Assembly: GCA_028279895.1 (NCBI GenBank)
Contig: JANQMY010000498.1
Coordinates: forward strand, 1-59,165
From: Alphaproteobacteria bacterium
GTDB taxonomy: Bacteria; Pseudomonadota; Alphaproteobacteria; JANQMY01
DNA: 59,165 nt
Reading direction: 5' to 3'
Every line of letters starts with the position of its first letter. Position 1 is the first letter of the stretch. Of this stretch, positions 1,369 through 58,245 are shown in pieces. Position numbers and translations under genes: made by a program. The notes beneath the pieces were generated by a model. That model was not told the origin of the DNA and ran no database searches. It saw only the letters and a list, made by a program, of their open reading frames with translations.

Positions 1369-2460
1369 GTGTTGTATCATTTGTTGGTGCCGTTAAGCGA
1401 TCAATTCGGCATCTTTAACGTTTTTCAGTACACGACGTTTCGAACCGGCGGCGCAATCATGACAGCGCTTTTCGTAAGCTTGTTTTTCGGGCCGCGTATC
1501 ATTGATTTGCTTCGCGCTCGTCAAAGCGCCGGACAGCCCATCCGAGAAGAAGGTCCAGAATCGCACTTGCTGACAAAGAAGGGCACACCGACGATGGGAG
1601 GATTCCTCATCTTGTTCGGAGTGCTTGTCGGAACCCTCTTATGGGCCGATCTGACCAATCAGTATGTTTGGGCCGTGCTTCTGGTCATCGTCGGGTTTGG
1701 ATTTGTCGGATTTGTCGATGACTACCTTAAGGTGACTAAACGCTCAAGCGACGGCATTTCAGGCCGCATCAAGTTGATTTCTCAATTCCTCTTCGCGTTC
1801 GCTGCCATCGTATGGATTCAGTCCATTATGGGCCCGGAGTTGGGGCAGGCGTTGGCGGTGCCATTCATTAAAGACCTTCTGATCAACCTGACTTGGTTCG
1901 GTTTCATACTCTTTGCCATGCTGGTGATTGTGGGGGCATCCAATGCGGTAAACCTGACGGACGGCTTGGACGGATTGGCAATTGTTCCGATCATGATCGC
2001 CGTTTCGAGTTTTGCATTGATCGCCTATCTGACGAGCAACGAGTTGTTTGCGAACTACCTGCAGATCAACTTCGTCCGGGGCACGGACGAACTGGTGATT
2101 TTGTGTGGGGCAATCGTTGGAGCTGGTTTGGGCTTTCTTTGGTTCAATGCGCCGCCGGCAATGGTGTTCATGGGAGATACCGGTTCACTGTCTTTAGGTG
2201 GTGCGGTCGGGGCAATTAGTGTGGCCACTAAGCATGAGTTGGTGTTGGTCATCATTGGGGGGTTGTTTGTCCTTGAGGCCGTGTCGGTCATCGTACAGGT
2301 GGCGTCGTACAAACTTACCGGTAAACGGGTTTTTCGGATGGCCCCTATCCATCATCACTTTGAGCAGATGGGCTGGTCGGAGCCCACGATTGTTATTCGC
2401 TTCTGGATAATCGCCGTTGTCTTAGCCTTGATCGGCCTCACCACACTGAAGCTGAGGTAG
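1369..2460 (+). CDS. mraY: phospho-N-acetylmuramoyl-pentapeptide transferase
   Basis: GTG start 7 nt after the murF stop. The product is a polytopic membrane protein with [13 protein letters not shown] and PIHHHFE motifs. Confidence 0.96.
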
Positions 2461-2465
2461 CGCTG

Positions 2466-3884
2466 TTGGTCCCTGTTAGGCAGTACAAAGGAAAAAAAAT
2501 AGCGGTATTTGGTCTTGCACGATCAGGGTTGGCAGCTGCGCTCGCCTTGAGTGAAGGCGGTGCTGAAATTGTTGCATGGGATGACAACCAGGCTCAGCGC
2601 GAGGCAGCGTCAAATGCAGGCATCCAGACAGCAAATCTGTACGAGGCGGACTGGTCGTCCATAGATTTGTGCATCTTAAGCCCCGGCGTGCCGCTGACAC
2701 ATCCGGCCCCCCATGCAATCGTCACCAAGGCGCGGGAAAGCAATATCGAGATCGTTGGAGATATAGAACTTTTTGCGCAGGAGTGGGAAGCCTGCGAGAA
2801 GAGGCCGAACCTCATCTGCATCACGGGTACAAACGGCAAATCGACGACGACGTCGCTTGTTGGACACGTCTTGCGGCAGGCGCAACGGTCCGTTGAGGTG
2901 GGCGGCAACATTGGTGAACCAGCATTGTCATTAAGCGGTTTTGACGCGCATGTGGGAGCCTACGCCTTAGAGGTGTCATCCTATCAGCTTGACCTATCAC
3001 CGAGTTTACGCCCCAGCATCTCAGTGCTGCTCAACATATCGCCTGATCACCTAGACCGGCACGGCGGTATGGAAGGCTATGTGGACGCCAAGCGAAAGAT
3101 CTTTCGTAATCAAGGTCACGGTGATGTGGCAATTGTCAGCGTGGACGACCCGTATTGCGCTGAGATCTGCACCGACATATCGCGAAACGGGATCGAGCGG
3201 GTTATTCCCATTTCGGTCGGCAAAGCGCTTAGCAAGGGTGTGTATGTGGTAGACGGCATTTTGTTTGACGGTTTTGAAAGTCCGTGTACCGAAGTTTTAG
3301 ACCTTCATGAATGTCAAAATCTGAAGGGCGAGCACAATTGGCAGAATGCCGCGGCCGGCTTCGCTGTCGGCCGGGCGCTGGGCATTTCTACAGATATGAT
3401 TGCGCGCGCCCTTAGATCGTTCCCAGGGTTGCCGCATCGTCTTGAACTTGTTGGCGAATTGGACGGCGTTAGATTCGTCAACGATTCCAAAGCGACCAAT
3501 GTGGATGCGGCCTGCAGGGCGCTCTCCTCTTTTGAGAATGTATATTGGATCGCCGGTGGACGGTCCAAGTCAAAGGCGCTGGAACCGCTGCATGAGTTTA
3601 GGGATCGGATCAAAAAGGCATTTCTGATCGGGGAAGCGGCAGCCGATTTCTCAAACGCGCTGGCGTCCTTTACGCCATCGGAACTCTCCGGTGACTTGGC
3701 AAGCGCTGTTGGTGCTGCCTTTCTGGAGGCGCGCCGAAGCTCCGAACAAGATCCGGTCGTTCTCCTTTCGCCGGCTTGTGCGTCTTTCGATCAATTCTCG
3801 GACTTCGAGGAACGTGGCAACGCGTTCAAGGCGGCCGTTGACGAACTAATGGCAACCCAGACACGTGGAGGGGCAGCGGCATGA
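2466..3884 (+). CDS. murD: UDP-N-acetylmuramoylalanine--D-glutamate ligase
   Basis: TTG start. N-terminal Rossmann-like FGLARSG and Mur ligase P-loop GTNGKSTT. Position in the dcw cluster fits. Confidence 0.95.
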   Translation: MVPVRQYKGKKIAVFGLARSGLAAALALSEGGAEIVAWDDNQAQREAASNAGIQTANLYEADWSSIDLCILSPGVPLTHPAPHAIVTKARESNIEIVGDIELFAQEWEACEKRPNLICITGTNGKSTTTSLVGHVLRQAQRSVEVGGNIGEPALSLSGFDAHVGAYALEVSSYQLDLSPSLRPSISVLLNISPDHLDRHGGMEGYVDAKRKIFRNQGHGDVAIVSVDDPYCAEICTDISRNGIERVIPISVGKALSKGVYVVDGILFDGFESPCTEVLDLHECQNLKGEHNWQNAAAGFAVGRALGISTDMIARALRSFPGLPHRLELVGELDGVRFVNDSKATNVDAACRALSSFENVYWIAGGRSKSKALEPLHEFRDRIKKAFLIGEAAADFSNALASFTPSELSGDLASAVGAAFLEARRSSEQDPVVLLSPACASFDQFSDFEERGNAFKAAVDELMATQTRGGAAA

Positions 3885-35284: not shown

Positions 35285-35585
35285 TACGAACTCACCTCAA
35301 AGAGTCAATTCTTGTGAGGCGTTTTGAGTGAGGGGCTTCTGTTGCCCGGCGCCCCTCAAGCCGCGCTTACCTAAAATTAGGCAGCGATTGCCATTTCGTT
35401 ATCGTTGGCAATTGTAAAGATGGTCCGATAACGGCGGTACCATGCCGGGCAAAAGATACACCTTTAGACGCTCGTCGATCCTATTTCGCCCCCAAAACAG
35501 CCAGCCATTGTGGTCAATTGTTTGGTGGAGGCGCCGGGTACCGCCCCCGGGTCCGATACGCTTATTACGTGCTCGTTTATCGCCA
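35285..35585 (-). ncRNA. ssrA: two-piece (circularly permuted) tmRNA, ssrA. Acceptor piece about 35523-35585, intervening segment 35494-35522, coding piece about 35285-35493. Outer ends are approximate.
   Basis: On the minus strand the acceptor piece ends ...CCGGG-GGCGGUA-CCCGG-CGCCUCC-ACCA at 35523. Thirty nt downstream the coding piece starts GGGGGCGAAAUAGGAUCGACG at 35493, and its 5' strand pairs with CGCCUCC including G3:U. The tag frame GCC AAC GAU AAC GAA AUG GCA AUC GCU GCC UAA (35409..35377) encodes ANDNEMAIAA. A terminal stem-loop lies at 35295-35319, and a TATAAT box at about 35589-35594 is upstream. Confidence 0.9.
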
Positions 35586-35715
35586 TAGCCGGTGAGACCG
35601 GCACCTTTATTATAGTGTTTCTAAGCGGTTAATTAAACCCTTCATCACAGCTACATACCTGTCTTGAAAGCTGCTATTTTGTTACCTCGATTCTTTTTGG
35701 TAAATACACCGTCCC

Positions 35716-54908: not shown

Positions 54909-55445
54909 ATGTTGGGAGTCATCCATAAGAGTGCGGCCATGGCGAGAAATCACGGAACCAAGGGATTTGAGTGGGATTTGCCCAATCCGTTTTCGATTCC
55001 AGTCGATGTGGAGGACGGAAACATCGACAATTACGGCCACGTCAATAATGCGGTCTATGTAGGGTGGTTAGACCGATGTGCTTGGCAGCACTCCGTACAC
55101 GTTGGTATCACGAAGGCGGACTGCGATCGGATCGGTCGTGGCATGGTGGTGCGCAAGACGCAAATTGAGTATCTGAGACCAGCCTTCAAGGGGCAGCGCG
55201 TCCAAGTGGGGAACTGGGTAACGTTTGCAGACGGCAGATTGCGCGCAAGCCGGCGCTTTCAAATTGTCCGACATGGAGACGGTGTAACCTTGTTGCGCGC
55301 GTTGTTGCACTATGTCTGCATTGATCTGGAAAGCGGCAGGCCTTCTCGCTGGCCGGAGGAGTTCAAGAAGAACTACGTCATCGATCCGGCCGTTGCTGCG
55401 ATTGTCTCAGGAGAGAGCTATAGGTTTCAACCTGGTGTCGACTAG
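54909..55445 (+). CDS. hotdog-fold acyl-CoA thioesterase (YbgC/4HBT-like)
   Basis: Contains VDVEDGNIDNYGHVNNAVYVGWLDRCAW, typical of 4HBT thioesterases. The start is ATG 54909 or 54939, and the track start at 54789 would overlap rodA. Confidence 0.8.
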   Translation: MLGVIHKSAAMARNHGTKGFEWDLPNPFSIPVDVEDGNIDNYGHVNNAVYVGWLDRCAWQHSVHVGITKADCDRIGRGMVVRKTQIEYLRPAFKGQRVQVGNWVTFADGRLRASRRFQIVRHGDGVTLLRALLHYVCIDLESGRPSRWPEEFKKNYVIDPAVAAIVSGESYRFQPGVD

Positions 55446-55964
55446 GGCGTGATCATTTTTCACGGAAACATGATCATGCCTGCGATTCACAGTTGGGCGC
55501 AAAGCGCGATGGAAGCATGAGACATGCTGCGCGGCAAGTTCTCCCCCGATTGCCACAAGCAATCCATCATAACGGGATCGGCAATAGGTGTAGTGCTGGG
55601 ACGCGCGCGCTTGCCGCTGTTGGTACAGAGAAAGCTTCAGCCTTCTGAGGATCGCTGCGGCAACGTCTGGTCGTGTGCTCGAAAGCCACTCCTCGGGGCA
55701 ATGAATGAGAGTGGGCAGTAGACGTCTGCGGTCATAGGATGACACTCGTTCTCGGATGATTTGGCGATCGCGCCGCCGGGCGGTTCGGCATGACGGGGCC
55801 GCGAAGTCCTTCTTTAAATCAACAGCCCTTCGCCTGAAACCCATGGAACGACGGGCGAAAAAGTGGAATCCGGTTTTTCGCGTTACCGGCGCGACCATCA
55901 AAGAGTCCGTAGCATCGGACGATTTGGATAAATCGCCCGATGCTGTAGTTGGCACTTGGTTCAT
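55407..55964 (-). CDS. hypothetical protein (185 aa), basic, no family confidently recognised
   Basis: ATG 55964 has an AAGGUG RBS 5 nt upstream, and codon usage resembles neighbouring genes. The 3' end overlaps the convergent thioesterase by 39 nt. It lies downstream of a structured leader. Confidence 0.55.
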   Translation of the reverse strand: MNQVPTTASGDLSKSSDATDSLMVAPVTRKTGFHFFARRSMGFRRRAVDLKKDFAAPSCRTARRRDRQIIRERVSSYDRRRLLPTLIHCPEEWLSSTRPDVAAAILRRLKLSLYQQRQARASQHYTYCRSRYDGLLVAIGGELAAQHVSCFHRALRPTVNRRHDHVSVKNDHALVDTRLKPIALS

Positions 55965-56009
55965 GATGTCACCTTTTTCCTCCCTCAAACTCGTTCGTAT
56001 TTGTTCTGG

Positions 56010-56061
56010 AAAAAAGTCCGGGGGCCAGGCGGCGAGGGAGGGGGAAACGCCCGACCCCCGG
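56010..56061 (-). terminator. strong intrinsic terminator/attenuator in the leader of the 55407..55964 gene
   Basis: On the minus-strand RNA, CCGGGGGUCGGGCG (56061..56048) pairs with CGCCUGGCCCCCGG (56031..56018). This gives 14 bp with two G.U pairs and the 16-nt C-rich loop UUUCCCCCUCCCUCGC, followed by AC and U6 (56015..56010). Confidence 0.75.
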
Positions 56062-56069
56062 GGGCAATT

Positions 56070-56098
56070 TCTCATCGACCGGGGGGAAATCGATGAGA
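56070..56098 (-). promoter_or_regulatory. leader hairpin with a possible antiterminator role
   Basis: Perfect 9-bp inverted repeat TCTCATCGA-N11-TCGATGAGA. On the minus strand its loop is UUUCCCCCCGG, whose C-run can pair with the G-run of the 5' arm of the downstream terminator. Confidence 0.5.
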
Positions 56099-56107
56099 TA
56101 AGTTAAA

Positions 56108-56149
56108 CTTATATTATTGGCTATGCCTATGTCAATTGGACAATCCAAT
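56108..56149 (-). promoter_or_regulatory. putative sigma70 promoter facing the 55407..55964 gene, with two operator-like palindromes
   Basis: On the minus strand, TTGACA (56135..56130), a 16-nt spacer, then TATAAG (56113..56108). The perfect palindrome ATTGG-ACAAT-CCAAT (56135-56149) abuts the -35. The imperfect copy ATTGG-CTATG-CCTAT (56116-56130) fills the spacer. Confidence 0.6.
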
Positions 56150-56167: not shown

Positions 56168-56794
56168 CTAATAGTGGCGAACGGCGTCGGTCACCCGTCC
56201 AACCACCTCTACCGATTCCTGCGGAAAGATGGTTTCGTGGGAAGGGTCTGTAGAGAAAGGCTCAAGCCGCGGGGGATTGCTACGCCATCTTTTTAAGGTC
56301 GCCTGCCCCTCTTGGCGGAACACGTAAAATTTGTTGTCGATCAATTCTTTATCGGTATAGTCCACAACAATTATCGTTCCTGGGGGAAACTCCCGGTTGC
56401 ATGACGTACCGCTGACTTTTAGGGCAATCAGCGTTGAAACGTCCGAGGCGATGGCGATAAAACGTTCCGCGTCGCCGGGCTGATATGGGTCTTCTATCGA
56501 CACAAATTGGCCTGCCTCTACCCAACTGATCAACGGAACGGCGCGAACCGGTTCCTTGATCGGACTGAGATCAGCCCCCCAATCAACACTATCGGTTTGA
56601 GAACCGAATTCAAGCCAAATCGGCGTCACTGATAAAACTTTAGCGAGTGGTCCGATTTTGGAACGCTCGGGCGCATAATCGCCGTTCTCCCATTGGGATA
56701 TGGTGGCCTGGGTTACGCCCAGCCGGGCGGCAAGATCCTTTTGAGACTGCCGCTTTTGTTGCCGTGCCTGGCGTATTCTTTCCCCGATCGACAT
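56168..56794 (-). CDS. CI/LexA-type repressor: XRE HTH fused to an S24 peptidase domain
   Basis: N-terminal HTH QKDLAARLGVTQATISQWENG. Linker with VPLISWVEAGQF, carrying an Ala-Gly site as in lambda CI VQAG. S24 core VSGTSCNREFPPGTIIVVD retains the Ser, and ATLKRW retains the Lys. Confidence 0.88.
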   Translation of the reverse strand: MSIGERIRQARQQKRQSQKDLAARLGVTQATISQWENGDYAPERSKIGPLAKVLSVTPIWLEFGSQTDSVDWGADLSPIKEPVRAVPLISWVEAGQFVSIEDPYQPGDAERFIAIASDVSTLIALKVSGTSCNREFPPGTIIVVDYTDKELIDNKFYVFRQEGQATLKRWRSNPPRLEPFSTDPSHETIFPQESVEVVGRVTDAVRHY

Positions 56795-56862: not shown

Positions 56863-56906
56863 TTGAAATAAATTGGTAATACCAATATAAAATAGGTAAT
56901 TCTTAT
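56863..56906 (+). promoter_or_regulatory. near-consensus sigma70 promoter, divergent from the repressor gene, with operator palindromes
   Basis: TTGAAA (56863-56868), a 17-nt spacer, then TATAAA (56886-56891). The perfect palindrome ATTGG-TAATA-CCAAT (56872-56886) fills the spacer. The degenerate copy ATAGG-TAATT-CTTAT (56892-56906) is centred 20 bp downstream. Confidence 0.7.
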
Positions 56907-56955
56907 AGGCACTCGGTTTGTGAGGGAAAGCCGGCTTAAATTAGAGGAATTGACG

Positions 56956-57198
56956 GTGAGAAAACCCCGCAAAAAATTTGAACTTGTATCTTCCCCAGAC
57001 GGGGACGCAACGATTGAAGCGGTGGGCGCTTCGACGTTCCTCTCGTTGCGTCGGGCCGGCACCCAATATCGTGTGGAAACCCGGGCCGGCGACGATGAAA
57101 TTGTCCGCTGCTTTCCCGACTGGTGTTCGGCTGCTCTGGCGTTCGCCATGCTTTATCACACGGAGCAATGTCTCGACAGGTTGGGAGGGCATGTGTGA
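56956..57198 (+). CDS. hypothetical protein (80 aa)
   Basis: GTG 56956 has a GAGGA RBS 7 nt upstream. It is the first gene downstream of the operator-controlled promoter, and its stop overlaps the next start (GTGATG). Confidence 0.55.
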   Translation: MRKPRKKFELVSSPDGDATIEAVGASTFLSLRRAGTQYRVETRAGDDEIVRCFPDWCSAALAFAMLYHTEQCLDRLGGHV

Positions 57199-57779
57199 TG
57201 GCACGACGTGGACGTAAACGTCAACTTAATGCGAGACGGCGCAAGACCACGGTTCGCGGCCGCCGGCCTATCGATCACGGAACTGAATTTGCGGCGAAAC
57301 GCCGGCTGGAACTGGTGGGGCGCGCAGACCCGGCACTGAGCGAAAGCGCCTTGGGCATTCTTTATGCGCGCGGCTGGATCGATGAACCAAGATACAAGGC
57401 GGGCACATTGTTTGCCGCGTTCCGTCAGGCGGCTTATGGCAAGTCCTTTGCGCCGGTTGCCCATTACGGCGACTACGTGGATGATTATGTACGTCGGTCG
57501 GCGGAAGACCGGTTGTCAGACAACGAGCCTTATTTGGTGTCGATAACGCGGGCATATCTTCGGGGCGACCGTATTCTAAGACAGGCTACCGGCCCGATCC
57601 GCACAGCTACCTGGAACGTCTGTGTGCTGTCTATCATTCCAAGCTGGGCCTTGCGCCCTTCGAGTGAAGGAATGAGCGAAGCGGAGATGCAAAATCGTGG
57701 CGACATCGTGGCGGGCCTTGATCTGCTTACGGACGAGTACGGCACGGACAAGCAATCGCAAAAAAAAGTGAGCGGCTGA
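57198..57779 (+). CDS. hypothetical protein (193 aa) with an arginine-rich N-terminus
   Basis: ATG 57198 overlaps the upstream stop. The N-terminus MARRGRKRQLNARRRKTTVRGRR has 14 basic residues (R/K) in its 23 positions. The remainder is soluble and no family was recognised with confidence. Confidence 0.65.
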   Translation: MARRGRKRQLNARRRKTTVRGRRPIDHGTEFAAKRRLELVGRADPALSESALGILYARGWIDEPRYKAGTLFAAFRQAAYGKSFAPVAHYGDYVDDYVRRSAEDRLSDNEPYLVSITRAYLRGDRILRQATGPIRTATWNVCVLSIIPSWALRPSSEGMSEAEMQNRGDIVAGLDLLTDEYGTDKQSQKKVSG

Positions 57780-57851
57780 TCCAGTTTTCTATTTACGCTT
57801 TGGCTTGCGCGTGCTATACATGCGACGTAATTGAGACTTACGCAGTGTGTC

Positions 57852-57884
57852 AAAGGCGCAGCCCGAAACGGCGGCGCTTTTTTT
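57852..57884 (+). terminator. intrinsic terminator between the 193-aa gene and the next small gene
   Basis: AAAG-GCGCAGCC-CGAAAC-GGCGGCGC-TTTTTTT, an 8-bp GC stem with one mismatch, an A-tract upstream and T7 downstream. Confidence 0.85.
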
Positions 57885-57930
57885 GTGCGCGGCGTCGGCG
57901 CCCAAGTGGGGAGGCGAAAGGTGTAACTAC

Positions 57931-58245
57931 ATGTCCCGAAAATCTGCGCCGCGCGGCATGCCCGTGGCGGAAACCCCGCCAAAGCCGAAGAACCACAGGG
58001 GCCAGATCGACGTGGCCGGCTTGCTCAAGGCCTTGGAAGCCCACGTGCTGGAAGAGGCGGCGCTGTCCGCCACGCAAGTCAGTGCGGCCCTTGGTCTGCT
58101 GAAGAAGGCCTTGCCGGATCTGCAATCCACGACCGTTGAGGGCACGGCGCCCACGCGTGTTTTTGTGGTGTCGGATACGCCGGACCCGAAGTCTTCGGAG
58201 GATTGGGTGCGGGAATTCTCGCCCACCAGCCGAAGGCCGAACTGA
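57931..58245 (+). CDS. hypothetical protein (104 aa)
   Basis: ATG 57931 follows a GGAGGCGAAAGG RBS region. The helical segment SATQVSAALGLLKKALPDLQS faintly resembles phage small-terminase-like proteins from memory, which I have not verified. The track start at 57847 would read through the terminator. Confidence 0.55.
   Translation: MSRKSAPRGMPVAETPPKPKNHRGQIDVAGLLKALEAHVLEEAALSATQVSAALGLLKKALPDLQSTTVEGTAPTRVFVVSDTPDPKSSEDWVREFSPTSRRPN

Follow-up and report, generated by a model that had tools for sequence, protein, structure and literature searches.

A structured leader between a repressor gene and a DUF6477-like gene

We analyzed a 59,165-nt stretch of an alphaproteobacterial genome assembly (GCA_028279895.1, contig JANQMY010000498.1, positions 1 to 59,165; the whole stretch is hereafter called the window), on whose minus strand a structured leader separates a repressor gene from a downstream open reading frame (ORF). 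The repressor gene (56168..56794, minus strand) encodes a 208-aa CI/LexA-like protein with HTH_3 and Peptidase_S24 domains, and the ORF (55407..55964, minus strand) encodes a 185-aa distant relative of DUF6477 with a conserved core at residues 67-143 (55536..55766). Between them lies a conserved two-hairpin RNA module (56016..56101, minus strand), defined by a covariance model (R1) and an alignment, which is the core of our finding. Nine syntenic loci were compared, namely the window and eight homologs (including L001, L003-L006, and L010-L012). Their gene order comprises divergent small genes, the repressor gene, a 180-300-nt spacer, the ORF, a convergent and overlapping 4HBT thioesterase gene, rodA, and mrdA, and they come from uncultured Alphaproteobacteria of coral and marine metagenomes.

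Reading the minus strand together with RNAfold, we found hairpin 1 (HP1, 56070..56098) to have a 9-bp stem, or 11 bp counting two wobble/closing pairs, in which UCUCAUCGA (56098..56090) pairs with UCGAUGAGA (56078..56070) around the 11-nt loop UUUCCCCCCGG (56089..56079). HP1 opens the predicted transcript, beginning within ∼3 nt of its predicted 5' end, and is followed by the G-run CCCCCGGGGG at 56064..56055. Hairpin 2 (HP2, 56018..56061, minus strand) has a 14-bp GC-rich stem formed by CCGGGGGUCGGGCG (56061..56048) and CGCCUGGCCCCCGG (56031..56018), with the 16-nt loop UUUCCCCCUCCCUCGC (56047..56032); the two hairpins span 29 nt and 44 nt, respectively. Two nucleotides (AC) 3' of HP2, a U6 tract (56010..56015, minus strand) is present only in the window genome. 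Further downstream, the translation initiation region (55962..55986, minus strand) consists of the purine tract GAGGGAGG (55986..55979), a Shine-Dalgarno sequence (SD) AAGGUG (55975..55970), and the ATG start codon (55964..55962). An AGGUGA-type SD is shared by the window, L001, and L012, with the variant AGGUGG in L011. All the sequence elements that an earlier, sequence-only reading of the contig had listed were present where it had placed them.

That reading had also described the leader as highly structured, and folding bore this out: RNAfold returned exactly both hairpins, with a minimum free energy (MFE) of -56.8 kcal/mol (z = -3.1) that was reached by 1 of 200 shuffled sequences, and with pair probabilities of ∼1.0 for HP1 and HP2 alike. 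In the MFE fold of the window, ACUUUUUUCC (56017..56008), which contains the U tract, is paired with GGAAAAAGGU (55980..55971), which contains the SD. The leader, including the U6 tract, is identical across contigs of three independent metagenome runs.

Within the translation initiation region of the window (55961..55986), we also noted a GUG (55972..55970), 6 nt past GAGGGAGG, which opens a three-codon mini-ORF, GUG-ACA-UCA-UGA. Its stop codon overlaps the main ATG as AUGA. The mini-ORF is not kept in L001 and may be a coincidence.

The hairpins are a conserved, strand-specific RNA module

The sequence-only reading had proposed to look for covariation in homologous leaders, and in these we found the structure to be kept, with two-sided pair changes. 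The aligned modules comprise eight distinct sequences and 23 pairs, that is, 184 paired cells. Standard base pairs fill 98.9% of these cells, compared with 26-54% in slid-partner controls; only 2 of the 184 are unpaired, and RNAalifold agrees. Eleven of the 23 pairs are variable, two of them changed on both sides (U-A to C-G in L011, in HP1; A-U to G-C in the window, in HP2) and eight varying via G-U intermediates. Among the nine pairs of HP1, four are invariant, three vary on one side, and one on both, with 97.2% of cells paired. All cells of the fourteen HP2 pairs are paired (100%), five pairs varying on one side and one on both. The loops carry motifs that are invariant in all nine loci, CCCCCCG in loop 1 and CCUCCCUCGC in loop 2. 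Loop 1 has a run of six or seven cytosines in 9/9 loci, and loop 2 has 8-11 cytosines in interrupted form, as CCCCCUCCCUC in the window and CCCGCCUCCCUC in most homologs. Mean pairwise identity is 85.9% over the module (84 nt), 79.7% over the C-terminal coding region of the repressor gene, and 65.3% over the ORF core.

Some 20 of the 184 cells are G-U, a pair that the complementary strand would turn into an A-C mismatch. Covariance model R1 scores 91 bits in the window and 93-109 bits in the eight homologs, but 14-27 bits on the opposite strand. The G-U cells and the strand asymmetry of the scores indicate an RNA made from the gene strand, and on the same grounds a reading of the hairpins as a DNA-level palindrome or binding site was ruled out.

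The module occurs once per locus, always beside the ORF. We found no second R1 copy in the window or the other loci, and none beside more distant DUF6477-like genes. A blastn search with the leader returned no match in phage and plasmid collections, nor did DNA-pattern scans with the promoter/operator pattern and with the HP2 loop plus arm, JGI metagenomes included. Protein-pattern scans for further loci retrieved only two already known metagenome-assembled genomes from genome contigs and none from metagenome and viral contigs. The leader had not been recognized as a described class in the sequence-only reading; likewise, permissive Rfam searches of the window, L003, and L011 gave only sub-threshold matches to Scr3202 and ar14 plus noise, and no described RNA family. 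The module is thus a genuine, strand-specific, conserved, narrowly distributed, and previously undescribed structured RNA.

A conserved predicted promoter with candidate operators precedes the module

The upstream gene belongs clearly to the family of CI/LexA-type self-cleaving repressors by its domains, its Ala-Gly site, and its Ser/Lys dyad, and cleavage is predicted. Its product matches the Pfam families HTH_3 (7.8e-14) and Peptidase_S24 (5.5e-13) and, over residues 1-206, the PHROGs family phrog_4, 'transcriptional repressor' (8.3e-40); identity to the L003 orthologue is 87.5%. By inspection, A94-G95 forms the Ala-Gly site, with S131 (in GTSC) and K168 (in TLKRW) as the dyad. The spacing of 37 between S131 and K168 equals that between S119 and K156 of LexA.

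Downstream of the repressor gene, we identified a predicted sigma-70-type promoter (56108..56135, minus strand) with TTGACA (56135..56130), a 16-nt spacer, and TATAAG (56113..56108). A consensus scan did not call it, since its -10 hexamer ends in G. The pattern CCAATTGACAT-N8-CCAATA-N-TATAAG is common to 8/9 loci, L011 and L012 each being one or two bases off in the CCAATA part, and the two hairpins begin ∼12 nt after it. This promoter conservation in the nine loci points to a transcription start near 56100.

Two operator-like palindromes lie in tandem over the promoter: an exact ATTGGACAATCCAAT (56135..56149), which overlaps the -35 hexamer, and ATTGGCTATGCCTAT (56116..56130), with one mismatch, in the promoter spacer. 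A third, exact palindrome, ATTGGTAATACCAAT (56872..56886), lies in the divergent region upstream of the repressor gene. Exact ATTGG-N5-CCAAT sites number two in the 59 kb, at the two promoter regions flanking the repressor gene. Over the leader promoter, every homologous locus carries the exact site once or twice, and palindromes with one or two mismatches occur in the divergent region of L001, L003, L004, L005, L010, and L011. These palindromes are probably operators of the adjacent repressor, the layout being as expected for such sites. With its promoter covered in this way, the unit would probably be silent until the repressor is inactivated.

Both promoter regions flanking the repressor gene also contain ATA(A/G)GCATAGC, and the divergent region contains a conserved 23-mer, TTCAATAGGCATAGCTTATGCAG.

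Folding and comparison do not support an attenuator

We then considered what the leader might do. The sequence-only reading had proposed a classical attenuator, in which the G-run would pair either with the C-run of loop 1 or with the 3' arm of HP2 and thereby gate read-through into the ORF. The C-run and the G-run are indeed complementary, and in the window the GC-rich 14-bp stem of HP2 is followed by AC and U6, so that HP2 with ACUUUUUU resembles an intrinsic terminator. To call this a strong intrinsic terminator holds for the stem and U tract of the window only. HP2 was not called in a terminator scan for loops of 3-8 nt because its loop is 16 nt, and a U-tail after HP2 is present in just 1/9 loci, the window; the other eight read AUCC.., AUGU.., AUCU.., or AACC.. 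at this point. Nor did folding support the proposed alternation between terminator and antiterminator. When the loop-1 C-run was forced to pair with the G-run, the fold reached -24.4 kcal/mol compared with -44.6 kcal/mol for the terminator fold, leaving the antiterminator ∼20 kcal/mol less stable, and HP1 stays closed in the nascent RNA. The HP2 pairs have probabilities of ∼1.0.

The distance from HP2 to the start codon is 28-31 nt in L003-L006, 28-46 nt in seven of the eight homologs, and 147 nt in L001. A further promoter would not fit into this interval in L003-L006; there the hairpins must belong to the mRNA and, being transcribed into it, cannot be efficient terminators. We found no sensing element: the leaders have no conserved leader peptide or reading frame, no ligand-type fold, and no match to a riboswitch or leader family; a protein-binding site is possible. 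A sensing terminator/antiterminator attenuator is not supported by these observations. At the level of the family the model is largely refuted, and we consider it very improbable altogether.

C/U-rich leaders face a G-rich translation initiation region

The sequence-only reading had further pointed to a complementarity between loop 2 and GAGGGAGG, and this proved to be real: the duplex has an energy of -20.0 kcal/mol, which 0/500 dinucleotide shuffles of the target region reached. For matches between a C-rich loop and a G-run, the corresponding shuffle tests gave 0.004 for loop 2 of L006, 0.02 for loop 1 of L012, 0.036 for loop 1 of L003, and a marginal 0.058 for L005. In the full-leader MFE folds of L003-L006 and L011, the SD or the start codon is sequestered by the spacer GUCUCC, the HP1 5' arm, or loop 1. 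A C/U-rich leader facing a G-rich initiation region is therefore consistent as a theme, but no single conserved anti-SD helix is demonstrated. Of the proposal that the leader gates both transcription and translation of the ORF, the part that concerns anti-SD pairing stays plausible, with matches in the window and three or four homologs; four loci lack a match, and the part that concerns transcriptional attenuation fell with the attenuator.

Tentatively, we favor the reading that the module is a cis-acting translational brake and 5' stabilizer and that the window genome has gained a U tract at which the RNA may also terminate. The segment would be the 5' leader of the mRNA for the DUF6477-like protein, starting at the sigma-70-type promoter, and its first ∼85 nt would form the two stable hairpins with C-rich, anti-SD-like loops. 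C/U-rich single-stranded segments may then pair with the G-rich tract and the SD and so lower translation initiation, as a second, post-transcriptional brake. This pairing would be made by loop 2 in the window and by loop 1 in several homologs; the L003-L006 group would use the spacer GUCUCC. Protection of the RNA may be a further role of HP1, which lies at its 5' terminus. Because U6 follows HP2 in the window genome alone, a fraction of its transcripts may stop as a ∼90-nt RNA, and in the RNA that is read through, the U tract is predicted to pair with GGAAAAAGGU and thus cover the SD.

Several observations weigh against this translational brake. In the shuffle test, the match between loops and initiation region was not significant in L001, L004, L010, and L011. 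SD opening energies were 7.7-19.8 kcal/mol, in no locus above those of dinucleotide-shuffled leaders, so that a specific masking of the SD, over and above the effect of composition, is not demonstrated. All nine sequences are close relatives, and both-side changes affect two pairs only. A search of public RNA-seq runs found none that covers the region, and we infer the start site, the termination, and the effects on translation from the sequences. Finally, the loops are invariant, whereas their supposed cis partners vary in sequence and position, a pattern for which a target in trans or a protein partner would account no less well.

The protein partner belongs to an alternative in which the module serves stability, processing, or protein binding: HP1 would shield the RNA against 5'-end-dependent decay, and a protein would recognize the loops, possibly the arginine-rich ORF product in an autoregulatory circuit. 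Invariant loops on covarying stems are typical of protein-recognized hairpins, HP1 lies ∼3 nt from the predicted start, and the ORF product is basic, helical, and without a match to a known fold. Nothing, however, ties that protein to RNA binding, and the distant homolog L014, described below, has no RNA module, so the protein does not generally need one. The matches between C-rich loops and G-rich initiation regions would also be left unexplained, and we regard this alternative as quite unlikely.

The module resembles C-rich-loop small RNAs

A trans target leads to small RNAs (sRNAs), several families of which act through C-rich loops. In Actinobacteria, 6C RNA (RF01066) needs no chaperone when its loops pair with single-stranded G-rich ribosome-binding site (RBS) regions, for example AGGGGGG of panD (PMC6486639); 6C is defined by two stem-loops with ≥6 cytosines per loop (PMC8388888), and in C. 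glutamicum it is upregulated by mitomycin C and in the absence of LexA (PMC5014011). Our module likewise has two hairpins with C-rich loops, and the link of 6C to LexA parallels the proposed control of the module by an S24 repressor. In contrast to 6C, which is a stand-alone, abundant sRNA of another phylum, the module is an mRNA 5' end in at least 8/9 loci, and loop 2 of the homologs, CCCGCCUCCCUC, has no uninterrupted C6 run. Scans of the window, L003, and L011 did not list the 6C covariance model even at E ≤ 10.

The cuckoo/CcsR (RSs0680)/ar14 (RF02344) RNAs consist of 24-50-nt hairpins, two to four side by side, with loops of 9-27 nt, each loop carrying CCUCCUCCC (PMC4615179). They share with the module their occurrence in Alphaproteobacteria, anti-SD-like C/U-rich loops, and their dimensions, since adjacent hairpins of 29 and 44 nt with loops of 11 and 16 nt fall into the cuckoo size range; CCUCCCUC in loop 2 of the module is close to CCUCCUCCC. 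The hosts of the module count as Alphaproteobacteria by the labels of their metagenome-assembled genomes and, in the window, by a permuted transfer-messenger RNA gene of the alphaproteobacterial type. Neither module loop contains the CCUCCUCCC motif itself, however, and loop 1 is UGUCCCCCCGA, a plain C6-7 run. The ar14 model scored 11.2 bits in L003 against a gathering threshold of 58.8 and was unlisted for the window and L011. Furthermore, cuckoo RNAs are a cluster of trans-acting sRNAs co-transcribed with a small upstream gene, whereas the module is single-copy and fixed upstream of one gene.

The best Rfam alignment was to the Streptomyces sRNA Scr3202 (RF02833), which covers both hairpins at full length and has C-rich loops. 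Its scores of 32.4, 24.7, and 24.3 bits (window, L003, and L011) lie below the gathering threshold of 52. Scr3202 comes from unrelated organisms and is functionally uncharacterized; the RNA is merely listed in PMC8388888. In Xanthomonas, C-rich hairpin loops of sX13 are reported to act on G-rich motifs near mRNA start sites (PMC3771888). This RNA is a stand-alone sRNA of another bacterial class, has no sequence relationship to the module, and was unlisted in Rfam scans of the leader. With intrinsic terminators and attenuators, such as the trp and pyr leaders, and with rnTrpL-type leader sRNAs, the window genome alone shares a GC-rich hairpin and U6 in a 5' leader, and like rnTrpL its leader could give a short leader RNA. 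It differs from all of these in having no antiterminator of comparable energy, no leader peptide or ligand fold, an unconserved U-tail, and a 16-nt loop.

The main rival to the translational brake, and a more novel one, is accordingly a trans-acting sRNA of the 6C/cuckoo/sX13 type made from the 5' end of the transcript. It would be released by termination at HP2-U6 in the window genome and by processing elsewhere, and after inactivation of the repressor its loops would pair with G-rich RBSs of other mRNAs. The architecture of two adjacent hairpins is that of known C-rich-loop sRNAs (PMC6486639; PMC4615179; PMC3771888), the best full-length near-match in Rfam, Scr3202, is a two-hairpin sRNA, and the induction of C. 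glutamicum 6C by mitomycin C and in a lexA mutant (PMC5014011) offers a precedent. The loops are invariant though the cis initiation region varies, and the terminator-like end in the window would yield a discrete ∼90-nt RNA. On the other side, 8/9 loci lack the U-tail and HP2 stands near the start codon in seven loci (147 nt away in L001), which makes the RNA foremost a 5' untranslated region (UTR) there. Occurring once per locus and always with the ORF, the module also falls below threshold for every sRNA family. We consider the trans-acting sRNA possible but rather unlikely.

A bolder combination, which we think unlikely, would make the module the alphaproteobacterial counterpart of 6C: a repressor-gated, probably damage-induced, dual-function transcript, whose loops would act in trans on G-rich RBSs and whose ORF would supply a DUF6477-like effector, the whole being a domesticated mobile-element remnant beside mrdA-rodA.

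If the translational brake holds, the module would represent an undescribed RNA motif absent from Rfam and would carry the C-rich-loop, anti-SD logic known from the sRNAs 6C, cuckoo, and sX13 over to a 5' leader that a phage-type, SOS-like repressor controls. It would then form a two-layer lock, transcriptional and post-transcriptional, on a DUF6477-like gene of the kind that heads mobile-element operons in related bacteria. The window genome appears to have added the U tract, which could turn a leader hairpin into a terminator and a source of leader-derived sRNA. Given the narrow distribution (nine loci in uncultured marine or coral-associated Alphaproteobacteria), the general impact would be moderate.

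The ORF is a coding gene with an in-frame palindromic repeat

The sequence-only reading had called the product of the ORF unknown, which is true only in part. Eight homologs share with it a core of 78 residues with 35 invariant columns, all of which the window ORF keeps. Differences in the core fall on codon positions 1/2/3 as 872/684/1738, and this excess at third positions identifies a real, coding gene. The window ORF had no match to PF20083 (DUF6477) in Pfam, the gathering threshold not being met. A search with the family profile reached a wider set of 105-125-aa proteins, and 8 of the 10 scanned match PF20083, three with >25 bits. Since PF20083 matches occur only among these profile-reached relatives, the ORF is a divergent relative of DUF6477 rather than a scored one.

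The ORF product is a basic, arginine-rich, helical protein. In the AlphaFold2 model, residues 57-154 are helical, with predicted local distance difference test (pLDDT) values mostly >90 for residues 61-150, and a fold search with this model against the PDB gave no match at E ≤ 0.001, only helical-hairpin noise. Neither the ORF nor the 218-aa and 132-aa neighbors had a match in NCBIfam, PHROGs, or PADLOC. A full-text literature search on DUF6477 returned no paper; if the favored reading holds, the module would give a concrete handle on this family.

The N terminus of the window ORF is in part an insertion. A dispersed palindromic repeat of ∼100 nt (55852..55952) is inserted in frame just past the ORF start, at about residues 5-38, and makes up most of the non-conserved N-terminal extension (∼34 residues). 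Contigs break at this repeat, ∼30 of them per metagenome run, and its summed word depth is 130-260 compared with ∼6 in the flanks. When folded, the repeat forms two hairpins (-41.2 kcal/mol, z -3.75), one of which has the loop CCGGAUUCCAC on the stem GCGAAAAA/UUUUUCGC. A related repeat module is present in the 5' UTR of L001 (3856..4000), with the loop unchanged and a stem that is different yet complementary (GGUGAA/UUCACC). The insertion is reminiscent of the in-frame insertions of palindromic elements in other Alphaproteobacteria.

An insertion of this kind would suit a locus in decay, where HP2-U6 merely ends the repressor mRNA, the repeat-disrupted ORF is a decaying remnant, and the leader of the window genome has no function of its own. 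The terminator scan found no other terminator-like site between the repressor stop codon and HP2, and the locus has the appearance of a larger mobile element reduced to a remnant. Against such decay, the promoter and candidate operators between the repressor stop and HP1 are conserved in 9/9 loci, the hairpins are kept elsewhere without a U-tail, and the ORF core retains its 35 family-invariant residues and a coding substitution pattern, the insertion being in frame. We judge this explanation highly improbable.

The public gene call P0001 (55407..56075, 222 aa) places the start at ATG 56075 inside the 3' arm of HP1 and so translates the whole leader, and the L006 gene call likewise starts at a GTG upstream of the promoter. 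Both starts are probably mis-set. In-frame stops occur between leader and ORF in 5/9 loci; together with substitutions that are structural rather than codon-like, they ruled out the leader as an N-terminal coding extension.

The ORF and the convergent 4HBT thioesterase gene share ∼39 nt at their 3' ends (55407..55445), the overlap in the homologs being 4-188 nt. The ORF tails within this overlap are not conserved.

Distant relatives and neighboring genes

We also compared the window with L014, a distant relative (1960..3363) in which an S24 repressor gene is followed by a DUF6477-like gene, DUF932, and then five or more small genes; L015 is a further case. In L014, the motif ATGTATGTGTACC occurs upstream of the repressor gene and again at the DUF6477-like promoter. 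The layout of regulation matches that of the window, with a different operator and without a structured leader or RNA module. In the light of L014, the unit under study appears to consist of the control region and the first gene of a mobile-element operon, and a DUF6477-like gene that follows its repressor and heads such an operon fits a tightly controlled first gene. The rodA-adjacent loci have the look of such an element reduced to a remnant and retained vertically.

Divergent from the repressor gene, a conserved island lies on the plus strand (56950..58224). It encodes homologs of L003 proteins with 83 aa (56950..57192), 195 aa (57198..57776, 70% identity), and 107 aa (57931..58224, 75% identity), none of which has a match in Pfam, NCBIfam, PHROGs, or PADLOC. 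Elsewhere in the window, we observed a permuted, two-piece alphaproteobacterial transfer-messenger RNA gene (35327..35641, minus strand) with the tag peptide ANDNEMAIAA.

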